NCBI GenBank assembly: GCA_947447945.1
Contig: CANFLR010000001.1
Location: 23,299 to 87,298, forward strand
DNA length: 64,000 bases
From: Burkholderiaceae bacterium
GTDB lineage: Bacteria > Pseudomonadota > Gammaproteobacteria > Burkholderiales > Burkholderiaceae
Direction: 5' to 3'
The notes under the pieces were generated by a model that saw nothing but the letters and a program-made list of their open reading frames with translations, was not told where the DNA came from and ran no database searches. The stretch's first letter is position 1. The number at the start of each line of letters is the position of its first letter. The position numbers and the translations under genes are program-made. Of the stretch, positions 19,336-49,546 are shown piece by piece.

Positions 19336-20310
19336 ATGAGACAAAAAATCGCAGCAATATTGGCTTTTATTGGTTTGGCATTCTTCTCGGGCGTTTCACT
19401 TGCTCAGGAATCTTGGCCTACTCGCCCAATCACGATGATCGTGCCATTTCCGCCTGGTGGGGTGGCGGATGCCGTGGGGCGTCCCGTGGCTGAGGCGATG
19501 TCGCGTATTTTGGGGCAGCCAGTGATTGTTGAAAACAAGGCTGGGGCAGGTGGTGGTATTGGTATGGCCGCAGTTGCCAAATCTAAACCTGATGGATATA
19601 CCATTTTGATGGCTTTATCATCCATTTCTATTATTCCTGAGGCCGACAAGATTGTCGGGCGCGAGCAATCTTTTCAATTAAATCAACTCAAGCCAATTGC
19701 CCGCTTTACTGCTGATCCAACCGTTTTGGTGGTTAGGGCTGATAGCCCTTGGAAGGATTACAAGTCGTTTGTGGCTGCCATGCGCGCCAATCCTGGTAAA
19801 TACAACTTTGGATCTTCCGGAAACTATGGGACCATGCATGTACCCATGGAAATGTTGAAGTCTTCTCAGCAATTTTATATGGTCCATATTCCATATACGG
19901 GTGCTGGTCCGGCGATTGTGGGCTTGCTTGGTGGGCAAGTGGATGCACTAGCTACCGGCCCCTCTTCGATTGTCCAGCAAATCAAAGCGGGTAAGGTTCG
20001 TGCCCTAGCGCATTGGGGTGACGGCCGGCTTGCCAGTTTGCCTGATGTCCCCAGCCTTAAGGAGCTAGGTGTCAAGATTGAGTTTGCACAATGGGCCGGC
20101 CTCTTTATCCCGAGCGCAACTCCGGATGCGATTACTAATAAATTGCGTGAGGTAGCTAAATTAGCAGCTAATGATGAGCGCGTGCGTGCGGTGATTACTG
20201 GCGCAGGAAGTCCAATACAGTATATGGATGCCCCTGAATTCAAAGTCTATTGGGATAAAGAATCTGCACAAATGGTTGAGGTTGTGAAAAAAATTGGCAA
20301 GGTCGAGTAA
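19336..20310 (+). CDS. Bug/TctC family periplasmic substrate-binding protein
   Basis: WPTRPITMIVPFPPGGVAD, KPDGYT and HIPYTGAGPA motifs. Confidence 0.92.
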   Translation: MRQKIAAILAFIGLAFFSGVSLAQESWPTRPITMIVPFPPGGVADAVGRPVAEAMSRILGQPVIVENKAGAGGGIGMAAVAKSKPDGYTILMALSSISIIPEADKIVGREQSFQLNQLKPIARFTADPTVLVVRADSPWKDYKSFVAAMRANPGKYNFGSSGNYGTMHVPMEMLKSSQQFYMVHIPYTGAGPAIVGLLGGQVDALATGPSSIVQQIKAGKVRALAHWGDGRLASLPDVPSLKELGVKIEFAQWAGLFIPSATPDAITNKLREVAKLAANDERVRAVITGAGSPIQYMDAPEFKVYWDKESAQMVEVVKKIGKVE

Positions 20311-20396
20311 TCGAGAGTCTACCAACTGTACTACTCTAGCCTTTGGCATGGGGGTCTGTATTCAAGAATATTGAATCATTGATAAACTGCTTAACC

Positions 20397-21185
20397 ATGT
20401 TAATGCGATTCCATTTTTTACCCCACTTTTTCTTTTTAGCTGCTTTGCTTGTGCTTCCCAGCACTGCTTATGCGGTGTTACAGGATGAGGTTCAGGTTTA
20501 TGATGACGCGATCAATGAGAAGGGTGAGTCTAGCTTAGAGTTGCATGTCAATAACACCCCTAGAGGCTTACAAACACCGACCTATCCAGGTGAGGTGATG
20601 AATAATAGCAATACCCGCATTACCCCAGAGTTTGCCTACGGATTGGGACATGATCTTGAGGCTGGTCTTTATATCAATACCGTTGTGAACAATAGCACCT
20701 GGAATTACGCGGGTGTAAAAGTTCGCTTAAAGTGGTTGCCTTATCAAGAGGAAAAAGGAGATCCTTTTTTTGCAGGTCTCAATGTGGAGTTATCTAATAT
20801 TTTGCCTCAGTACGAGGAGTCACGCTATAACTCCGAGGCTCGCTTTATATTTGGTAAACATATTGATAAATGGTTAGTCGTTGTAAACCCAATTTTTGAT
20901 CAACCGCTGTCTCAGCCCTATGTGCATCAAACCCCGTATTTCAATACGGCAGCACGCGTTTCACGCGAGGTGGCTCAGGATTTAGCCCTCGGGGTTGAGT
21001 ATTACTCAAATTACAACCAATTGGGTACTGGACCGGTTTCTTGGCCCAATACAGAGCAGATGGGATTTTTAACCATGTATTACGATGGTGGCCCATTACC
21101 TTTTCAGGCCGGCATCGGTAAGGGGTTTACCAATAGCAGTGATTCCTTGACGCTCAAAGCAATCTTTTCTATTCCTTTGCCCTAG
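20397..21185 (+). CDS. Exported hypothetical protein, probable outer-membrane beta-barrel
   Basis: Signal peptide ending AYA; DEVQVY N-terminal motif; alternating beta-strand pattern (EFAYG, EAGLY, LGVEYY, QAGIGKG); start could be 20403. Confidence 0.6.
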   Translation: MLMRFHFLPHFFFLAALLVLPSTAYAVLQDEVQVYDDAINEKGESSLELHVNNTPRGLQTPTYPGEVMNNSNTRITPEFAYGLGHDLEAGLYINTVVNNSTWNYAGVKVRLKWLPYQEEKGDPFFAGLNVELSNILPQYEESRYNSEARFIFGKHIDKWLVVVNPIFDQPLSQPYVHQTPYFNTAARVSREVAQDLALGVEYYSNYNQLGTGPVSWPNTEQMGFLTMYYDGGPLPFQAGIGKGFTNSSDSLTLKAIFSIPLP

Positions 21186-21282: not shown

Positions 21283-21744
21283 ATGGCTGTGAAGCTAACG
21301 GTTAACGGGCAGAGTCTCGAGGTAGATGTCGATCCCTCAACCCCCTTACTATATGTATTGCGGAATGACGCAATGATCAATTCAGCAAAGTATGGTTGTG
21401 GTGTGGGGCAGTGTGGTGCTTGTGCCGTGCTATTAGATGATCAGGTAGTTTTATCTTGTACTTTGCCAGTAGGCAATGTCAAAGGCAATATTAAAACACT
21501 CGAGTCTTACGAGAGTGATCGCACCCTAAATGCTTTAAATAAAGCGTTTATTGCAGAGCAAGCCGTTCAATGCGGTTATTGTATTTCTGGAATGATGATT
21601 CGTGCTAAATCCTTGCTTGATGTTAATAAGCATCCTAGTGTTCAACAAATTAAAGATACCCTGCAAGGACATTTATGCCGCTGCGGTACTCATACACGGA
21701 TTATTAAAGCAATTCAGCGCGCTTCTCAGGAGTTATCAGCATGA
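21283..21744 (+). CDS. (2Fe-2S)-binding small subunit of an aldehyde/isoquinoline oxidoreductase (IorA/CoxS-like)
   Basis: GCGVGQCGAC..SC, QCGYC and LCRCG clusters. Confidence 0.93.
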   Translation: MAVKLTVNGQSLEVDVDPSTPLLYVLRNDAMINSAKYGCGVGQCGACAVLLDDQVVLSCTLPVGNVKGNIKTLESYESDRTLNALNKAFIAEQAVQCGYCISGMMIRAKSLLDVNKHPSVQQIKDTLQGHLCRCGTHTRIIKAIQRASQELSA

Positions 21745-23984
21745 TGCATTCATCAAACGTTGCGCGCCGCCATTTCTTAAAAAGTAGCTTGGGTATAGCG
21801 ATTAGTTTTGCTTGGGCGCCAGCATTACTGGCGCAATCTTCAGCAAGCGCTTTGCCTGGCAGCTTAAATGCAAATCCAAAGCTTGATAGCTGGTTGCACA
21901 TTCAACCTGACGGCAAGGTTGTTGTCTTGGCAGGTAAGGTCGAATTTGGACAAGGCATCACTACTGCACTGATGCAGATTGTGGCTGATGAGTTAGAGAT
22001 CGACATGTCACGGATTGTGATGGTTCCAACCACCACTGGTATTTCTCCTGATGAAGGCGTTACTTCCGGCAGTCAATCCATTGAGTACGGTGGAATTGCT
22101 TTGCGCTACGCTGCGGCTGATGCAAGGGAGCTCTTATTAGAGCGAGCTTCTGTTAAGTTAGGCACACCTGTTTCTGAGCTGAAAGTGCGCGATGGTGAGA
22201 TTCGTACTGCGTCTGGCCAGTTGCTTACCTATTGGAATTTAGCAGATAGCGAACTCTTTCAGAGGCCGGTTAATGCTAAAGTAGCACTCAAGAAAACACA
22301 TACCACGATTGGCAAATCTATCCAGCGCGTAGATATTCCCGCCAAGGTATCAGGTAAGCCTGCGTATGTTCAAGATATGAAGATGCCAGGGATGCTGCAT
22401 GCCAGAGTGATTAGGCCGCCATCACCACGTGCGAGCATTCTGAGTGCAGATGCTGTTGCAATAGAAAAAATGCCTGGGGTAGTGGCTGTTGTTCAGAATG
22501 GCAGCTTCCTTGCAGTGGTTGCACAACGTGAAGATCAGGCTATTCGGGCTCGAGAAGCCTTAAAGAAGAGTACTCAGTGGAAACTAGCAAATGATCTGCC
22601 AACCTCTCTGCCGTCTTGGTTTAGGGAGATGAAGCAAAAGCCTTCGGTCGATAGTACCGTTAGCCTGAAGCAGAATGCTGCCAATCCGGGGACTAAAGTG
22701 CTGAGCGCCCAATTTACAAAACCATTTATTGCCCATGCTGCGATTGGTCCTTCATGTGCAATTGCCTTGATGAAGGACGGTGGGATTACTGCCTGGACTC
22801 ACAGCCAAGGCATGTACCCCTTAAGAACCGATTTAATCAAGACCCTAGGACTAGCTCCCGACAAAATTGTTTGCATACATCAAGAAGGTTCGGGTATGTA
22901 TGGTCAGAATGGTGCTGATGACGTCGCGCTAGATGCGATGCTAATCGCAAAAGCACTGCCTGGAAAACCCATTCGCGTTCAGTGGATGCGCGATGATGAG
23001 TTCAAGTGGGAGCCCTACGGATCAGCGATGATTATTAATATGCAAGCCTCGCTTGATCAAGAGGGAAATATTGTCGATTGGCAACATGAGCTTTGGAGTA
23101 ATACCCACAGCACCAGGCCGGGGGAGGCCACCGGCGACAATTTGATGGCGAGTTGGTATCTTGAAAAACCTTTCAAGCCTAGCCCGGTGAAAAATATTCC
23201 CCAGCCTGCTGGCGGGTCTGATCGTAATGCCGTACCTCTCTATGTGTTCCCAAATCAAAAGGTAGTGAATCATTTGCTGATTGATATGCCTTTACGGGTC
23301 TCAGCTTTACGTACGCTTGGAGCATATGCCAACGTTTTTGCTGTTGAATCGATGATGGATGATTTGGCTAAGGCCGCCAAGATTGATCCGGCTCAATTTC
23401 GATTGAAGTACTTGCAAGATCCACGCGCACGTGATGTTATAACGCACGTATCAACCATGTCAGCATGGCAAAAAATGCCACTCAAGTCTCAAAAGCAGGG
23501 TAAGTTGCATGGACGTGGCATAGCTTTTGCAAAATATAAAAATCTCTCCGCTTATGTTGCTTGTGTAGCTGATGTTGAAGTAGATCCTAAAACTGGAAAA
23601 GTTCGGGTGACTGATTTATATGCTTCAACTGATGGCGGCTTGGTCATCAACCCCAATGGTATTCAGAATCAGATTGAAGGGGGCTTAATTCAAACAACCA
23701 GTTGGACATTGTTTGAATCAGTGCCTTTTAATCAGGATGGTATTCAAGTGAGTTCATGGGCTGAATATCCAATTCTGCGTTTTTCTGACTTACCCAATGT
23801 GCATGTCGAGATTATTAATCGTGAGAATGAGAAGTCCCTTGGGGTTGGAGAGGGCTCTCAAGGGCCGGGTTGTGCCGCTATTGCCAATGCAGTCGCCAAT
23901 GCGATTGGTCAAAGAGTCTTTGATTTACCTTTGACCCCTGAAAGGATTAAGGCGGCCATAGAACTAGGCAAGCAGACCGCCTAG
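21741..23984 (+). CDS. Xanthine dehydrogenase-family molybdopterin-binding subunit (IorB-like), Tat signal
   Basis: ARRHFLK twin-arginine; GKVEFGQG, TSGSQS, NQIEGG and GVGE motifs; ATGA overlap with the small subunit. Confidence 0.9.
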   Translation: MMHSSNVARRHFLKSSLGIAISFAWAPALLAQSSASALPGSLNANPKLDSWLHIQPDGKVVVLAGKVEFGQGITTALMQIVADELEIDMSRIVMVPTTTGISPDEGVTSGSQSIEYGGIALRYAAADARELLLERASVKLGTPVSELKVRDGEIRTASGQLLTYWNLADSELFQRPVNAKVALKKTHTTIGKSIQRVDIPAKVSGKPAYVQDMKMPGMLHARVIRPPSPRASILSADAVAIEKMPGVVAVVQNGSFLAVVAQREDQAIRAREALKKSTQWKLANDLPTSLPSWFREMKQKPSVDSTVSLKQNAANPGTKVLSAQFTKPFIAHAAIGPSCAIALMKDGGITAWTHSQGMYPLRTDLIKTLGLAPDKIVCIHQEGSGMYGQNGADDVALDAMLIAKALPGKPIRVQWMRDDEFKWEPYGSAMIINMQASLDQEGNIVDWQHELWSNTHSTRPGEATGDNLMASWYLEKPFKPSPVKNIPQPAGGSDRNAVPLYVFPNQKVVNHLLIDMPLRVSALRTLGAYANVFAVESMMDDLAKAAKIDPAQFRLKYLQDPRARDVITHVSTMSAWQKMPLKSQKQGKLHGRGIAFAKYKNLSAYVACVADVEVDPKTGKVRVTDLYASTDGGLVINPNGIQNQIEGGLIQTTSWTLFESVPFNQDGIQVSSWAEYPILRFSDLPNVHVEIINRENEKSLGVGEGSQGPGCAAIANAVANAIGQRVFDLPLTPERIKAAIELGKQTA

Positions 23985-23991
23985 CAAGGCA

Positions 23992-24429
23992 TTATTTTTG
24001 GACTGGTTCTTCGAGGTTTGCGCGCTCTTGAGCACGAATATCAGCCGTGTAGAACTTGCCGGTATCTACGAGGGTAATCTTTTTAAGTGCACCCCCTTTA
24101 GTTCCGTTGCGTAGGGGATTAAAGTCTATAACTGCCTTATCTCCAGCCTTTACCACGTTCCTAGACCAGCCACCACCTCGGGTCAGGTTGCCTGGGCTGG
24201 TCATTTCCATTAACCAAAGTGCTGGGGTATCCCCGTCTTTAAAGGTGCCCTCTATAAAGATGGCAACATGGGGATTAGTCCATTGCACTTCTTTCACTAC
24301 TCCGGTAATCGTAGTAATCTTATCTTTATCAAACATAGTAGTCGAGTGATGCGCCATCACTGGAGCATTGCTTAGCATGCCAACTGTTATTGCAGTCATG
24401 GGCAATAGTTTTTTGAAGTTTAATTTCAT
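23992..24429 (-). CDS. Exported protein with N-terminal HHS and WTNPH motifs (DUF6152-like)
   Basis: Signal peptide ending VMA directly before HHSTTMFD; G.VKEVQWTNPH..W..EM..P. Confidence 0.75.
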   Translation of the reverse strand: MKLNFKKLLPMTAITVGMLSNAPVMAHHSTTMFDKDKITTITGVVKEVQWTNPHVAIFIEGTFKDGDTPALWLMEMTSPGNLTRGGGWSRNVVKAGDKAVIDFNPLRNGTKGGALKKITLVDTGKFYTADIRAQERANLEEPVQK

Positions 24430-24446
24430 CGTATTTACCTTTTCAT

Positions 24447-25274
24447 TTATTTTGGTGGGATGCGGTTTCCGCCAACATCGTGCTGGATTGGGACATAAAT
24501 ATCATTACCGTATTTATCTTTACCAGGGGCAAAGTAGCCCTCTAAGCAAACGCCTTCAACAATATCAAATTTTCTAGCGCGCTGGCGGAAATAGACACGG
24601 GTAGTTTTCCATGGTTTTGTGAGGATTTTCGGTGCAATTACTTCAATGTCGTCGTGCAGCTCATCTTTTCCAACCAAGTGAATGCGCTCAATAACGCGCA
24701 TGTCACCATTATTGGGAACGCCGGCCGCTTCGCTAATAGCAAGCAGAGATTGCGGCGAAATGCCGACCGTATCCACGACTAAAGTATCGCCTTCCCACTT
24801 GCCGATTGAATGCCCATGGAATGTTGGATCTGGATCCTCTGGGTGTGGGCGACCATCAGTGTAAATTCGCCTTAAGCGGTTTCCATCTGACTCACCAAGG
24901 ATGGTGACTCTGCCCGGGGTGAATAGCACCTCCATTGCATTATGCGTAATGAGCATCCAGGATGGCATTGCCTCTGGAAGGCAATTGACAAAGAGAGGCG
25001 GCGGTCTGCCAGCTTTTTCTTCAGCCAATTGAAATTGAATCAATTCATTTGCCTGAGGATTCCAAGGCGGCATATTTGTTTTGGCTTGCTTATCTTGGTC
25101 TGTAACAAATGGGTTCCATACACCACTCCAGTCCGGCAATTTTGCAAGATTAGCCCAATCCTTGGCAGTGGGGGGTGGATTGATGATGGGTTTATTGCTT
25201 GTTTGCGCAGCCGCGCCCAATGCAAGGCAGCCAAAGCTAATAGCCACTGACAATACGAGAAACTGTTTTTTCAT
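24447..25274 (-). CDS. Exported conserved hypothetical protein (DWSGVW / GHSIGKWEGDTLVVDT family)
   Basis: Signal peptide; lipocalin-like GxW; CLPEAMP, RRIYTDGR.HP and C-terminal Cys. Confidence 0.7.
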   Translation of the reverse strand: MKKQFLVLSVAISFGCLALGAAAQTSNKPIINPPPTAKDWANLAKLPDWSGVWNPFVTDQDKQAKTNMPPWNPQANELIQFQLAEEKAGRPPPLFVNCLPEAMPSWMLITHNAMEVLFTPGRVTILGESDGNRLRRIYTDGRPHPEDPDPTFHGHSIGKWEGDTLVVDTVGISPQSLLAISEAAGVPNNGDMRVIERIHLVGKDELHDDIEVIAPKILTKPWKTTRVYFRQRARKFDIVEGVCLEGYFAPGKDKYGNDIYVPIQHDVGGNRIPPK

Positions 25275-25283
25275 TCTTATTCC

Positions 25284-25796
25284 TTATGAAACAGCAAAAA
25301 CCGGTTCTAAAGTAAATCCAATCCAACGCCCACAAATAACGATAGCAATCCAAAGGGTGATCGAAACGAGTCCGGCTAACCTAGCTTGAAGTGGAAGTTG
25401 GAGCGCGTGATCCCATTGCTCTAAATTATTGCCAATGATGAATTGAAAAACCACCATGTTAATACCTGCTAGAGCCAATAAAAAAAGTTTACTTAGAAAA
25501 TAAAAATTTTGACTGTAGCCAATTGCGTTAGAGCTAAATAAAATCGCTCCCGATATTGCCGCAATCACGAAAGCGCACCAAGTAATTGGCAGAAGCTCTT
25601 TGCTAATCTTGCTAATAGGTCGATCAAGAGAGCGGACGCCAATTAAGCGCAGATCGACTAATGCAATGGAACCTAATACTAGGGTGATAGCCAATACATG
25701 CAAGGTTTCAAGCCATGGAAATAGCAACTCGTTTTCTCGAATAGTCAGAGCTAGTGGATTGTTGTGCAGATTCTGCAGAATAGAAGTTAGGTTCAT
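25284..25796 (-). CDS. 4-TM membrane protein (DUF6644-like)
   Basis: ETLHVL..DLRL.G..F..K..GRWIGF pattern; four hydrophobic segments. Confidence 0.72.
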   Translation of the reverse strand: MNLTSILQNLHNNPLALTIRENELLFPWLETLHVLAITLVLGSIALVDLRLIGVRSLDRPISKISKELLPITWCAFVIAAISGAILFSSNAIGYSQNFYFLSKLFLLALAGINMVVFQFIIGNNLEQWDHALQLPLQARLAGLVSITLWIAIVICGRWIGFTLEPVFAVS

Positions 25797-25814
25797 GCTG
25801 AAATTGAGGTCATG

Positions 25815-26312
25815 TTAGGTGTAAGCAATCCAGCGACCGCAAGACACAATGCCAATCCAAAGTGCGATGGAGCAAACTGCTAAGGTAGAGGCCAAGCTTC
25901 TTTTTTTGGGGCTAGCATTCCAGAAGAAAGAATCCCGATCGCTGACTCGAAGCAGCCAGTAGTGAAGAACAAGCACTATACACAGCATCAGCATTTTTAA
26001 TTGAAACGCAGCATTGGCTAAAGAGCGTGCCGGCTCTGCAATGATGAGAATGGCCCCTGTTGCCAGCAGCATCGGGACGGTAAACCACATGATTGGGGTA
26101 TATCGAGAAATGACGCTTGCGATGGAGAGCTCATTGCCGCTTATTCTCAACAATCGCAAATTGATCATTAGCGAAGCAATCAGGGTGGCAGCAATTGCCA
26201 AAATATGAATTGATTGTGCACTAGGAATAACCCAGCTTGTATCCTGAAATGCTAGGCTTAGCGGGGTATTTTCAAGGTAGTAACAAAAGTCGAGTAATAA
26301 AGGGGTGCGCAT
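25815..26312 (-). CDS. 4-TM membrane protein (DUF6644-like), paralog of 25284-25796
   Basis: QSIHIL..NLRLL..AFQLKM..GRWIAY pattern. Confidence 0.72.
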   Translation of the reverse strand: MRTPLLLDFCYYLENTPLSLAFQDTSWVIPSAQSIHILAIAATLIASLMINLRLLRISGNELSIASVISRYTPIMWFTVPMLLATGAILIIAEPARSLANAAFQLKMLMLCIVLVLHYWLLRVSDRDSFFWNASPKKRSLASTLAVCSIALWIGIVSCGRWIAYT

Positions 26313-26391
26313 TCAGCTAAACAAGTGTTTAATATTCTGAAAAGAGTGTATATCACTCCTACTGAATGTTCATTATTTTTTGGAGATGGCT

Positions 26392-27384
26392 ATGTTTCGC
26401 AGGCACCCACAGCATCTGTTGAGTGGCATTATTTTTGCTGCAACTGCAGCAATTATCTCCCTCTCTCACGCAGCACTTGCTGCTGATGAATTTCCCAGTA
26501 AGCCGATTAAAATTATTGTTACCGCTGCACCGGGCGGCACTACTGATATTGCGACTCGCCAGCTAGGGGTGGTGCTCGCGAAAGAGCTTGGTCAATCTGT
26601 GATTGTTGAAAATAAGGCTGGCGGCGCTGGAATTATCGGTCTGCAGGCTCTATTAGCGGCCCCAGCGGATGGATATACCATGGCGATGGGTAATATCGGC
26701 ACCAATGCTATTAACTACAGTCTTTATAAAACGCTGCCATACAAGGTTGAGGATATGGAGCCTATCACCATTGTTTTAGCGAATCCGAATGTCTTGGTGG
26801 TTAATCCCGATTTTCCGGCCAAGACGGTTGCTGAGTTAATTGCCTTGGCGAAGGCGAATCCCGGTAAATACTCCTTCGCATCTTCAGGGCGTGGGCAGTC
26901 GATTCATATGTCTGGCGAGCTATTACGTGTTGAAGCTGGGATTGATATTTTCCATGTACCTTACAAAGGGGCTGGACCAGCCTTAGCAGATTTATTGGCA
27001 GGACAGGTCAATATGATGGTTGATAACCTTCCAAGCTCAATGCAATATATTAAGACTGGAAAATTGAGAGCCTTAGCGCTTACTAGTAAAACGCGCGTAC
27101 CAGAGTTGCCTGATGTTCCTACGATGATTCAATCTGGCTTTCCTGGCTTTGAGGTCACCGCCTGGTTTGGTTTATTTGTTCCAGCAGGCACTCCCAAACC
27201 CGTCATTGATAAGCTTTATATGGCAGTGAAGAAGTCTCTTGAGACGCCTGAAATGAAGCAACGCTGGAAGGATCTTGGTGGTTGGGCGGTTGGCGATACT
27301 CCGGCCAATACAAAACTATTTCTTGCTAGCGAAAAGAAAAAGTGGGAACAAGTTGCCGCTCAGGCAAAAATTGAGAAGGAATAA
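26392..27384 (+). CDS. Bug/TctC family periplasmic substrate-binding protein
   Basis: FPSKPIKIIV..PGGTTD, PADGYT and HVPYKGAGPA motifs; GGAG 6 nt before ATG 26392. Confidence 0.92.
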   Translation: MFRRHPQHLLSGIIFAATAAIISLSHAALAADEFPSKPIKIIVTAAPGGTTDIATRQLGVVLAKELGQSVIVENKAGGAGIIGLQALLAAPADGYTMAMGNIGTNAINYSLYKTLPYKVEDMEPITIVLANPNVLVVNPDFPAKTVAELIALAKANPGKYSFASSGRGQSIHMSGELLRVEAGIDIFHVPYKGAGPALADLLAGQVNMMVDNLPSSMQYIKTGKLRALALTSKTRVPELPDVPTMIQSGFPGFEVTAWFGLFVPAGTPKPVIDKLYMAVKKSLETPEMKQRWKDLGGWAVGDTPANTKLFLASEKKKWEQVAAQAKIEKE

Positions 27385-48138: not shown

Positions 48139-48164
48139 CTCCCTTGACCCAAGGGTTAAGGGAG
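48139..48164 (+). terminator. Hairpin after prpE
   Basis: CTCCCTTGACC-CAAG-GGTTAAGGGAG; no clear U-tract. Confidence 0.5.
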
Positions 48165-48269
48165 GTCTATCCCTGCAGAGCCCAATAGGCTGGGGATTCA
48201 AGGATTTGGGGCGCAAAACTGGTATGATTGCTAGGTTCGAAACTTAATAAATTACCCTAGCGCTTAAAG

Positions 48270-48347
48270 ACACTCACCTCCCGCACAAACAGCCTCGGGT
48301 TAGTCTTTTTTGAGGGTTTTGAGCGTCGGATGGAGCAGGGACTGGAG
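48270..48347 (+). ncRNA. Structured carA 5' leader RNA (riboswitch candidate)
   Basis: Extended imperfect hairpin (CTCC/GGAG, CGC/GCG, CAAAC/GTTTTG, CCTC/GAGG) ending just before the GGAG RBS; matches my recollection of a described Polynucleobacter carA RNA motif. Confidence 0.6.
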
Positions 48348-48352
48348 ATGGT

Positions 48353-49546
48353 TTGTCACCCTTGCTTCCTTCTTTTCCCCCCGCCGTGTTGGCTCTTGCC
48401 GACGGCACAATATTTCCTGGTTTTAGCATTGGTGCTTCTGGTGAAACTTCTGGCGAAGTGGTTTTCAACACTGCGCTCACGGGTTATCAAGAGATCATTA
48501 CCGATCCAAGTTATGCCCGTCAAATTGTGACCTTAACGTATCCCCACATTGGTAATGTTGGTGTGAATGCGCAGGATTCTGAATCTGCACAAATCTATGC
48601 AGCGGGCTTAGTGGTGAAGGATGTACCGCGCCGCTTATCCAACTTCCGCTCTGAATCTAGCCTGGAGGATTACCTCAGCACTTCAGGTGTTGTTGGCATC
48701 TCCGGAATCGATACCCGCAAGCTCACCCGCATCTTACGAGATAAAGGCGCTCAATCTGGGGCAGTAGTAGCCGGTAAACGTGGCGATGATGTTGAGGCGT
48801 TAGGTCTAAAAGCCTTGGTATTGGCAAAAGCCTTTCCTGGTATGGCTGGCCTGGACTTGGCAAAAGTAGTGACAACCAAGGCCGCATATGAGTGGCGCGA
48901 AGCAGAATGGGAGTTGCATGGCCCTGATGGTAAGCCCGCCTATAAAACGCTAGACACGAGCAAACCCCTGAAAAAAGTTGTGGCCTATGACTTTGGTGTA
49001 AAGCGCAACATCTTGCGGATGCTCACCGAGCGCGGTTGTCAGTTGACGGTAGTGCCAGCGCAAACTAGCGCCTCTGAAGTGCTGGCGATGAATCCTGATG
49101 GCGTATTTTTCTCAAACGGCCCTGGTGATCCCGGGCCTTGCGATTACGCCATAGTTGCAGCAAAAGAGTTGATTGAGAAGGGTGTGCCTACTTTTGGTAT
49201 TTGCTTAGGACATCAAATTATGGGATTGGCTGCCGGTGCCAAAACCTTGAAGATGAAGTTTGGTCATCATGGTGCCAATCATCCTGTGAAAGATCTGGAC
49301 ACAGGGCGCGTAGCAATTACTTCTCAGAACCATGGTTTTGCGGTTGATGCTAATACATTGCCTGACAACATTCGAGTCACGCATGTCTCCTTGTTTGATG
49401 GGTCTTTGCAAGGTCTTGCCTGGAAAGATAAGCCTGCATTATGTTTTCAAGGCCATCCAGAAGCATCACCAGGCCCTCATGACATTGCTTATTTATTTGA
49501 TCGTTTTGTAGAACTGATGAACGCTACCCAGAAGGAGGGCAAATAA
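48353..49546 (+). CDS. carA: Carbamoyl-phosphate synthase small subunit
   Basis: [26 protein letters not shown] and QGHPEA motifs; TTG start. Confidence 0.96.

Follow-up and report, generated by a model that had tools for sequence, protein, structure and literature searches.

A conserved, uncharacterized operon of DUF6644, calycin-like, and DUF6152 proteins in a Polynucleobacter-like bacterium: a possible metal relay of the CopC/CopD kind

Introduction

To our knowledge, little is known about how bacteria pass copper and other metals from the periplasm to the inner membrane. Import by a CopD-type protein was shown only in 2025, for the copper importer YebZ of Escherichia coli. In YebZ, copper uptake is lost with the exchange H154A and lowered with H135A, and the two residues are located near the periplasmic face (PMC11923076). 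In about 70% of cases, copD is found in the vicinity of copC (PMC11923076), and an N-terminal histidine serves as a Cu(II) ligand in CopC/YobA, in the CopC domain of YcnJ, and in YcnI (PMC12362106, PMC11923076). Here, we describe four genes in a window of 64,000 nucleotides (GenBank assembly GCA_947447945.1, contig CANFLR010000001.1, positions 23,299 to 87,298 of the forward strand), which is the whole stretch of DNA that was analyzed and belongs to a 1.9-Mb, 85%-complete Polynucleobacter-like (freshwater) assembly. The genes encode two membrane proteins of the family DUF6644 (genes 1 and 2), a secreted calycin-like beta-barrel (gene 3), and a secreted DUF6152 protein that is predicted to start with His-His (gene 4). 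They form a real, conserved, and uncharacterized operon; the system is a variant of the CopC/CopD kind rather than unprecedented, and its three protein families are experimentally untouched.

The closest described counterparts are CopC-CopD and the AZY system of E. coli (YobA-YebZ-YebY; PMC11923076), in which a periplasmic protein that binds the metal by its N-terminal histidine is encoded beside a membrane protein of the CopD superfamily, an arrangement comparable to that of DUF6152 and DUF6644. Further features that may be common are a histidine at the periplasmic face of the membrane protein (essential in YebZ, predicted in DUF6644) and a third periplasmic protein (a modulator in AZY). CopD comprises eight helices in two four-helix bundles, which would be supplied here by two paralogous genes, or by one gene in the minimal form of the system. 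Unlike in AZY, the third protein is a calycin barrel of about 250 amino acids instead of a DUF2511 protein, and DUF6644 remains below the Pfam cut-off for CopD. The YcnI-YcnJ system of Bacillus subtilis is also operon-encoded; it has N-terminal histidines in extracytoplasmic Cu(II) sites and exchanges the metal between the partners of a CopD-type importer (PMC12362106; PMC8424229). However, YcnI is a DUF1775 protein and YcnJ a CopC-CopD fusion, and neither of them was found to be related in sequence or fold to DUF6152 or to the barrel.

Organization and distribution of the module

The four open reading frames occupy positions 23992-26312 of the window and are separated by intergenic gaps of 18, 9, and 17 bp (Table 1); the tight packing on the minus strand described in the initial annotation was confirmed for both coordinates and gaps. 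The conserved element GAGTGATATACACTC upstream of gene 1 resembles an extended -10 box (TGnTATACA) within a GAGTG/CACTC inverted repeat, and its core (ATATA.ACT) is invariant across the upstream regions of six Polynucleobacter loci. Since a scan for consensus promoters did not call GAGTGATATACACTC, we infer its function from these features: it is probably the promoter or an operator of the operon, and its conservation is consistent with a four-gene operon that has its own promoter.

Table 1. Features of the operon and its surroundings (positions refer to the window)
Feature	Position	Strand	Description
Gene 1	25815-26312	(-)	165 amino acids (aa), DUF6644 paralog, g1 type
Gene 2	25284-25796	(-)	170 aa, DUF6644 paralog, g2 type
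Gene 3	24447-25274	(-)	275 aa, secreted, predicted calycin-like beta-barrel
Gene 4	23992-24429	(-)	145 aa, secreted DUF6152 protein, predicted oligonucleotide/oligosaccharide-binding (OB) fold
Element GAGTGATATACACTC	26344-26358	(-)	32-46 nt 5' of the ATG of gene 1; conserved
Gene 1, His36 codon	26205-26207	(-)	
Gene 1, K106 codon	25995-25997	(-)	
Gene 2, His33 codon	25698-25700	(-)	
Gene 2, K103 codon	25488-25490	(-)	
Gene 3, C98 codon	24981-24983	(-)	
Gene 3, C243 codon	24546-24548	(-)	
Gene 4, His27-His28	24346-24351	(-)	
Gene 4, H54	24268-24270	(-)	NPH motif
Gene 4, E75	24205-24207	(-)	
Molybdoenzyme pair	21283-23984	(+)	2Fe-2S small subunit and Tat-signal molybdopterin large subunit, xanthine-dehydrogenase/aldehyde-oxidase family
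280-aa protein	20343-21185	(+)	secreted, convergent with DUF6152
TctC-family receptor	19336-20310	(+)	periplasmic, Bug-type
TctC-family receptor	26380-27384	(+)	periplasmic, Bug-type, divergent from the operon
carA motif	48160-48361	(+)	Rfam RF04192

The distribution of the two DUF families was assessed by searches of a sample of 401 Pseudomonadota genomes. DUF6644 is present in 24 and DUF6152 in 36 of them; both families occur in 24 genomes, only DUF6152 in 12, only DUF6644 in none, and neither in 365. The positive genomes span 18 genera, with related genomes not being independent of each other. At 18 of the 20 DUF6644 loci fetched from this sample, DUF6152 is located within 8 kb. Twelve of these loci are tight two-gene units, in which DUF6152 (starting with HHGW instead of HHS) is followed by a single DUF6644; six hold the barrel in addition to DUF6152, five of them with a DUF6644 pair (A/B) and one with a single DUF6644. 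The remaining two consist of the pair alone, and both genomes carry DUF6152 elsewhere. The barrel family was not found genome-wide in five of five genomes with the minimal DUF6152-DUF6644 unit. Because all DUF6644-positive genomes carry DUF6152 and the minimal unit lacks the barrel, DUF6152 and DUF6644 constitute the universal core of the system; only one branch (type I), which includes the operon in the window, has added the barrel.

A second set of 80 loci was fetched with the gene 3 family and comprises Alpha-, Beta-, and Gammaproteobacteria, Acidobacteriota, and Gemmatimonadota. DUF6152 lies beside the barrel gene in 65 of them, often in arrays of several barrel and DUF6152 genes. DUF6644 is adjacent in only 12 (in 11 as a pair), and the gene order of the window (g1-g2-barrel-DUF6152) is found in seven, recurring in Alpha-, Beta-, and Gammaproteobacteria. 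Where barrel/DUF6152 pairs have no adjacent DUF6644, the latter is encoded elsewhere in the genome (five of five cases), mostly as tandem pairs. In the genus Polynucleobacter, the module is accessory (8 of 80 other species). Several loci in Acidobacteriota and in a metagenome-assembled genome labeled Bordetella (L054, L059, L068, L077, L085, and L089) contain up to five or six barrels and one to four DUF6152 genes, and there are also proteins of about 500 amino acids with two barrel domains (P0137, P0165, P0184, P0217, and P0255).

The four genes, which the initial annotation had treated as a single module, do recur together elsewhere. That they are neighbors by chance, or share an operon without a joint function, might be suggested by the highly variable flanking context and by the presence of the DUF6644 pair next to barrel/DUF6152 in only 12 of the 80 loci, but is hardly credible in view of the short gaps (9-18 bp), the same order in three classes of Proteobacteria and in eight Polynucleobacter species, and the presence of DUF6152 in 24 of 24 genomes that encode DUF6644.

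The DUF6644 membrane pair

Genes 1 and 2 match the Pfam model of DUF6644 (PF20349) with 31.1 and 43.3 bits, respectively, which is above the gathering cut-off of 27 and substantiates the family label given in the initial annotation; the model is matched also by all 20 aligned homologs. The two proteins are 26% identical to each other. Residues invariant among the 20 homologs are a histidine in helix 1 (H36 in gene 1, H33 in gene 2), G86, F103, K106 (K103 in gene 2), and G159-R160, whereas L52-R53, N100, and W152 are nearly invariant. The features noted in the initial annotation for this paralogous pair of proteins with four transmembrane helices (a histidine in helix 1, an LRL motif, a lysine, and a C-terminal GRWI) recur in the family, with His, LR, N, F, K, and GR(W)I common to the 20 homologs. 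The content of lysine and arginine in successive loops (1.2, 3.6, 0.8, 3.5, and 1.0 residues) predicts, by the positive-inside rule, four helices with both termini outside (N-out/C-out). In this topology, H36, N100, K106, and G159-R160 would be located at the periplasmic face, with H36 and K106 of gene 1 at the periplasmic starts of helices 1 and 3, and the LR motif at the cytoplasmic end of helix 1.

In a maximum-likelihood tree of 50 DUF6644 proteins, g1-type proteins (support 100/100), g2-type proteins (100/98), and the single proteins of two-gene units (97/86) form clades of their own, and every paired locus supplies one member each to the g1-type and g2-type clades. Genes 1 and 2 are ancient paralogs, one from each of these two well-supported clades. 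Two natural proteins (344 and 341 amino acids; P0273 and P0274) carry two DUF6644 domains each, in gene order; the N-terminal half resembles g1 proteins (30% identity with gene 1), and the C-terminal half resembles g2 proteins (45% identity with gene 2; P0273). Such a fusion is topologically allowed under the N-out/C-out prediction and would contain eight helices, as in CopD. Because each locus contributes one member to each paralog clade and the fusions occur naturally in gene order, genes 1 and 2 very probably work as a heteromer, which agrees with the membrane heterodimer envisaged in the initial annotation. A divergent DUF6644 pair (L166 and L168, in genomes G893 and G1015), one member of which has about 300 amino acids and extra hydrophobic segments before the DUF6644 core, forms a separate, long-branched clade (100/100) in the tree.

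Relationship to CopD and HemJ

Profile comparisons indicate that DUF6644 is a remote member of the CopD-like superfamily. Sub-threshold Pfam matches of the 20 homologs were obtained with DUF2214 (11 members), CopD (7 members; best E value, 1.2e-4), and HemJ/UPF0093 (4 members). Gene 1 scores 20.2 bits against CopD (PF05425) in the Pfam scan and 21.5 bits in a search of the genome with the CopD model, i.e., below the cut-off of 32.1. The only other match of that model in the genome is a genuine HemJ (23.3 bits); neither a CopC nor an above-threshold CopD was found in the 85%-complete assembly. In a profile-profile comparison, DUF6644 matches the four-helix proteins of the CopD family with a probability of 81% (E value, 1.2e-5), and the alignment pairs H36 with their helix-1 histidine and LRL with LRP. 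This helix-1 histidine of four-helix CopD proteins and of HemJ aligns, in turn, with His154 of YebZ (E values, 0.0057 and 1.2e-4). Direct comparisons of the DUF6644 profile with YebZ, full-length CopD, and HemJ were not significant, and no equivalent of H135 of YebZ was identified.

The initial annotation had assumed a CopCD-like logic assembled from unrelated parts. The logic remains the best available analogy; the parts, however, are apparently not unrelated, and because of the remote membership of DUF6644 in the CopD-like superfamily, the analogy is better than had been assumed. HemJ proteins (PF03653) of other Burkholderiales (L112, L115, and others) reach 38-41 bits on PF05425 and therefore exceed the CopD cut-off of 32.1, which makes HemJ and CopD parts of one superfamily and implies that counts of the CopD family based on PF05425 include HemJ.

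HemJ (PgdH2) is a b-type hemoprotein that forms a stable dimer (PMC13564367). Like DUF6644, it has four helices, with an invariant histidine early in helix 1 and L-P/R-R about 15 residues further on, and it acts as a dimer, as DUF6644 probably does. Unlike DUF6644, it has no exported partner and is near-universal among relatives (24 of 26 genomes), whereas the module occurs in 8 of 80 species; the genuine HemJ of this genome is encoded elsewhere. The relationship leads to the main alternative interpretation, in which the DUF6644 heterodimer would bind heme b between its two helix-1 histidines, as presumed for dimeric HemJ, and pass electrons between the quinone pool and a metal center in DUF6152, which would then oxidize or reduce a small hydrophobic molecule bound by the calycin barrel. 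A transmembrane electron relay of this kind accords with a dimeric hemoprotein that belongs to the CopD-like superfamily, scores above the CopD cut-off, and has its helix-1 histidine in the same column as that of the four-helix CopD proteins. It is nevertheless less probable than a metal relay, because the alignment of DUF6644 with HemJ is not significant (hhalign E value of 0.13 over 16 columns; best E value of the four members that touch the HemJ model, 0.027) and because the conserved histidine is predicted to be located at the periplasmic end of helix 1 and not in the middle of the membrane.

The His-His protein DUF6152

Gene 4 is present in a single copy in the genome and matches DUF6152 (PF19649) with 88.6 bits (gathering cut-off, 27), again in agreement with the family name given in the initial annotation; no other Pfam family was matched, including CopC (PF04234). 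Its signal peptide is of the standard type (residues 1-26, ending in alanine), and cleavage after A26 is predicted to expose His27-His28 as the mature N-terminus. The predicted site is kept in 86 of 88 homologs and in both subtypes of DUF6152 (HHS.. and HHGW..). The N-terminal His-His pair, already singled out in the initial annotation, is the most conserved feature of the family. Among the 88 homologs, conservation amounts to 91% for A26, 98% each for H27 and H28, 95% for N52, 100% for P53, 99% for H54, and 97% for E75, with the NPH motif and the glutamate being almost invariant; in a 56-row alignment, A26, H27, H28, P53, H54, and G96 are invariant. H27, H28, and H54 are the only histidines of gene 4. 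With the predicted cleavage, the first mature residue is a histidine, as in the His-brace proteins of the CopC, YcnI, and LPMO class. A start of the type NH2-Xaa-His is a strong binding motif for Cu(II) and Ni(II).

The AlphaFold2 model of gene 4 (mean predicted local distance difference test [pLDDT], 89) has an OB fold. Structural matches comprise SSB, PriB, and the N-domains of tRNA synthetases but also CusF (3e6z, 1zeq), SilB (2l55), and CcmE, and none of them stands out. CusF and the C-terminal domain of SilB, which are OB-fold chaperones of Cu(I)/Ag(I), resemble DUF6152 in being small periplasmic OB folds. By contrast, there is no sequence similarity, the site of CusF (Met2-His-Trp) is located inside the barrel and not at an N-terminal His-His, and the matches are no better than those with SSB or PriB. 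The only fusions of DUF6152 to further domains that were found are two single-member products of read-through, in which a cytochrome c' domain without CxxCH is joined to DUF6152; they would fit a role of DUF6152 in electron transfer.

The calycin-like barrel

Gene 3 has no match in Pfam, NCBIfam, or the sequences of the PDB, and ten of its distant relatives are likewise without a Pfam or NCBIfam family. Its very large family comprises 7117 clusters at 50% identity (E value of 1e-3 or less). The two cysteines of the mature region that were noticed in the initial annotation (C98 and C243) are both present in 327 of 333 homologs, and LPDWSGxW and GxSxGxWEGDTLVVDT are conserved motifs. The His-rich motif HPEDPDPTFHGHSIG, which had also been noted, is poorly conserved (H153 in 47% and H155 in 64% of the homologs) and is not supported as a functional site.

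The AlphaFold2 model (pLDDT, 86) shows a calycin-type beta-barrel that spans residues 39-237. Foldseek returned 45 matches at an E value of 1e-3 or less; all among the top 50 listed are calycin-type lipid-binding proteins, namely intracellular lipid-binding proteins such as CRABP/CRBP and FABP and a tardigrade SAHS protein (E value for FABP/CRBP, 5e-5; TM score on the target, 0.5-0.58). In a VIA search, which is independent of Foldseek, 14 of the 16 top matches are of the calycin type (Z scores, 6.3-8.1), with nitrobindins at a Z score of 7. A search of the ESM Atlas yielded only unnamed clusters and a weak lead to DUF3471. On the evidence of the model, gene 3 is a member of the calycin superfamily by fold only, without a sequence signal, and the earlier description as lipocalin-like is appropriate at this level. 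Although gene 3 shares the fold of FABP, CRBP, CRABP, nitrobindin, and Rv2717c, it differs from these calycins by being secreted, by an extra helical region at the N-terminus and a C-terminal extension tied by the cysteine pair, by the lack of a sequence relationship, and by conserved residues that are mostly charged (D48, R135, D140, E196, R197, and E240). In one Polynucleobacter genome (L100/L101; G627:C1:318170-318995), two separate frames match residues 1-203 and 195-275 of the barrel, owing to a frameshift or to decay of the gene; its three companions seem to be intact.

Hydrophobic ligands, including tetrapyrroles, are typical of the calycin fold, and the expansion of barrel paralogs per DUF6152 in the arrays suggests diversified substrates, as would be expected if DUF6152 acted on a substrate held in the barrel. 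However, the minimal two-gene form lacks the barrel genome-wide, and a substrate bound in the barrel therefore cannot account for the function of the system in general. The same observation argues against an uptake or trafficking route for heme, a tetrapyrrole, or a hydrophobic nutrient, in which the ligand would pass from a TonB-dependent receptor to the barrel, be ligated by the His-His tip in the manner of CcmE, and reach the DUF6644 pair. This route would draw on the structural neighbors of the barrel, which include nitrobindins, Rv2717c, bilin lyases, UnaG, and a hemophore, on the presence of CcmE among the OB-fold matches of DUF6152, and on TonB-dependent receptors, which are the sole recurring neighbors on clustering (about 14 of the 80 barrel/DUF6152 loci) and occur also on a Croceibacterium plasmid. 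Since the phyla in question are very rich in such receptors, none adjoins the module in the window or at other Polynucleobacter loci, the fold matches are generic (Z scores of about 8 or less), and the barrel has no invariant histidine or tyrosine as a heme ligand, this explanation is improbable.

A possible copper relay

From the gene structure, family membership, folds, conservation, topology, co-occurrence, and fusions described above, we infer the binding of a metal, its identity, the direction of its transfer, and the role of the barrel as follows. In the best-supported explanation, which has somewhat less than an even chance of being correct, the operon may encode a periplasm-to-membrane metal relay on the CopC/CopD plan, with copper as the most plausible metal. 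DUF6152 would be exported, and cleavage of its signal peptide would expose the His-His tip, which together with the histidine of the NPH motif and the glutamate may bind a divalent metal, most plausibly Cu(II), with high affinity. The two DUF6644 proteins would assemble into a heterodimer of two four-helix bundles, with eight helices like full-length CopD, and each bundle would offer its invariant histidine as well as an asparagine, a lysine, and an arginine at the periplasmic face. The tip of DUF6152 may dock on this pair and transfer the metal, which would then be imported or passed on to enzymes of the membrane. In the type I branch only, DUF6152 would have a second partner in the periplasm, the calycin barrel, which would probably be a store, donor, or receptor (e.g., for a metal-ligand complex) or a modulator like YebY or YcnI. 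Copper is favored because an N-terminal histidine is the Cu(II) ligand of CopC, YobA, the CopC domain of YcnJ, and YcnI, and the pairing of DUF6152 with DUF6644 mirrors the location of copD beside copC (about 70%; PMC11923076).

Several observations weigh against copper transfer. Because the CopD model gives higher scores for HemJ, which binds heme b and belongs to the same superfamily, than for DUF6644, homology alone cannot single out copper. The equivalence of H36 with His154 of YebZ is moderately supported but only transitive, because the direct comparison of DUF6644 with YebZ is not significant, and the matches that connect them are individually weak. Moreover, the periplasmic protein has an OB fold and not the fold of CopC. 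Searches of the PDB with sequences and profiles of all three families found no solved relative, and no paper in the literature names DUF6152 or DUF6644, which is in keeping with their initial description as uncharacterized families. Among 126 genes that flank the module in other taxa, genes for copper homeostasis do not recur, and the plasmid-borne modules of sphingomonads are not located within copper islands. In Acidobacteriota, barrel and DUF6152 genes form tandem arrays of up to nine genes in 16 kb, which look more like a substrate-diversified system than like metal homeostasis. Finally, a class II cytochrome c lipoprotein adjoins the DUF6644 pair at 3 of 12 loci, which hints at electron transfer and thus favors the electron relay outlined above, although the operon in the window is without a cytochrome.

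Genomic context

The initial annotation had suggested that the operon might be coupled to the adjacent molybdoenzyme with a Tat signal. In five other Polynucleobacter genomes, the module is present at the same site, the molybdoenzyme pair is absent, and the gene of the 280-amino-acid protein directly abuts DUF6152; moreover, no molybdoenzyme recurs beside the module elsewhere (126 flanking genes). The molybdoenzyme was therefore rejected as a partner of the module. Because of its absence from the syntenic site, the pair looks like a local and recent insertion. It is IorAB-like, has no cytochrome subunit, and converges on the operon.

The 280-amino-acid protein has no match in Pfam or NCBIfam and may be an outer-membrane protein; its gene is kept beside the module in the five Polynucleobacter genomes (65-72% identity). 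Two genes of TctC-family receptors flank the region, the second of which starts 67 bp from the start codon of gene 1, in a position that is kept in three other genomes. In the census of the 126 flanking genes, no family was found at more than five loci. The neighbors of the plasmid copies in sphingomonads are TetR or MarR regulators, a TonB receptor, and fatty-acid genes, and RefSeq lists the proteins of the module on these plasmids as 'DUF6152 family protein', 'DUF6644 family protein', and 'hypothetical protein'. The four proteins do not show a sulfur-sparing composition (2.4-6.1% cysteine plus methionine, compared with 4.1% in neighboring genes). The carA motif is a full-length match to a noncoding RNA (212 bits; gathering score, 100) and the sole Rfam match in the window, which is without tRNA genes.

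Implications

The co-occurrence pattern provides a rule for annotation, as DUF6644 was never found without DUF6152 in the sample of 401 Pseudomonadota genomes, and the barrel family, in spite of its 7117 clusters, still has no Pfam or NCBIfam model. In this module, a CopD-like unit is naturally 'split', and its periplasmic partner is of a different kind and easy to purify. This leads to a hypothesis at the level of residues, which involves the His-His tip and the helix-1 histidine of each membrane subunit. It is possible, though less likely than not, that these genes belong to a widespread and unstudied envelope system, in which a His-His OB-fold protein is the hub that always serves a split CopD-like unit and, in one large branch, also a diversified set of barrels. 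If true, the system would either represent metal import of the CopC/CopD type that was invented independently for a second time or constitute a new redox system of the periplasm that depends on a metal and is connected to the membrane by a heme- or metal-binding pair of four-helix proteins, and either would add a new branch to the copper or redox biology of soil and freshwater bacteria.

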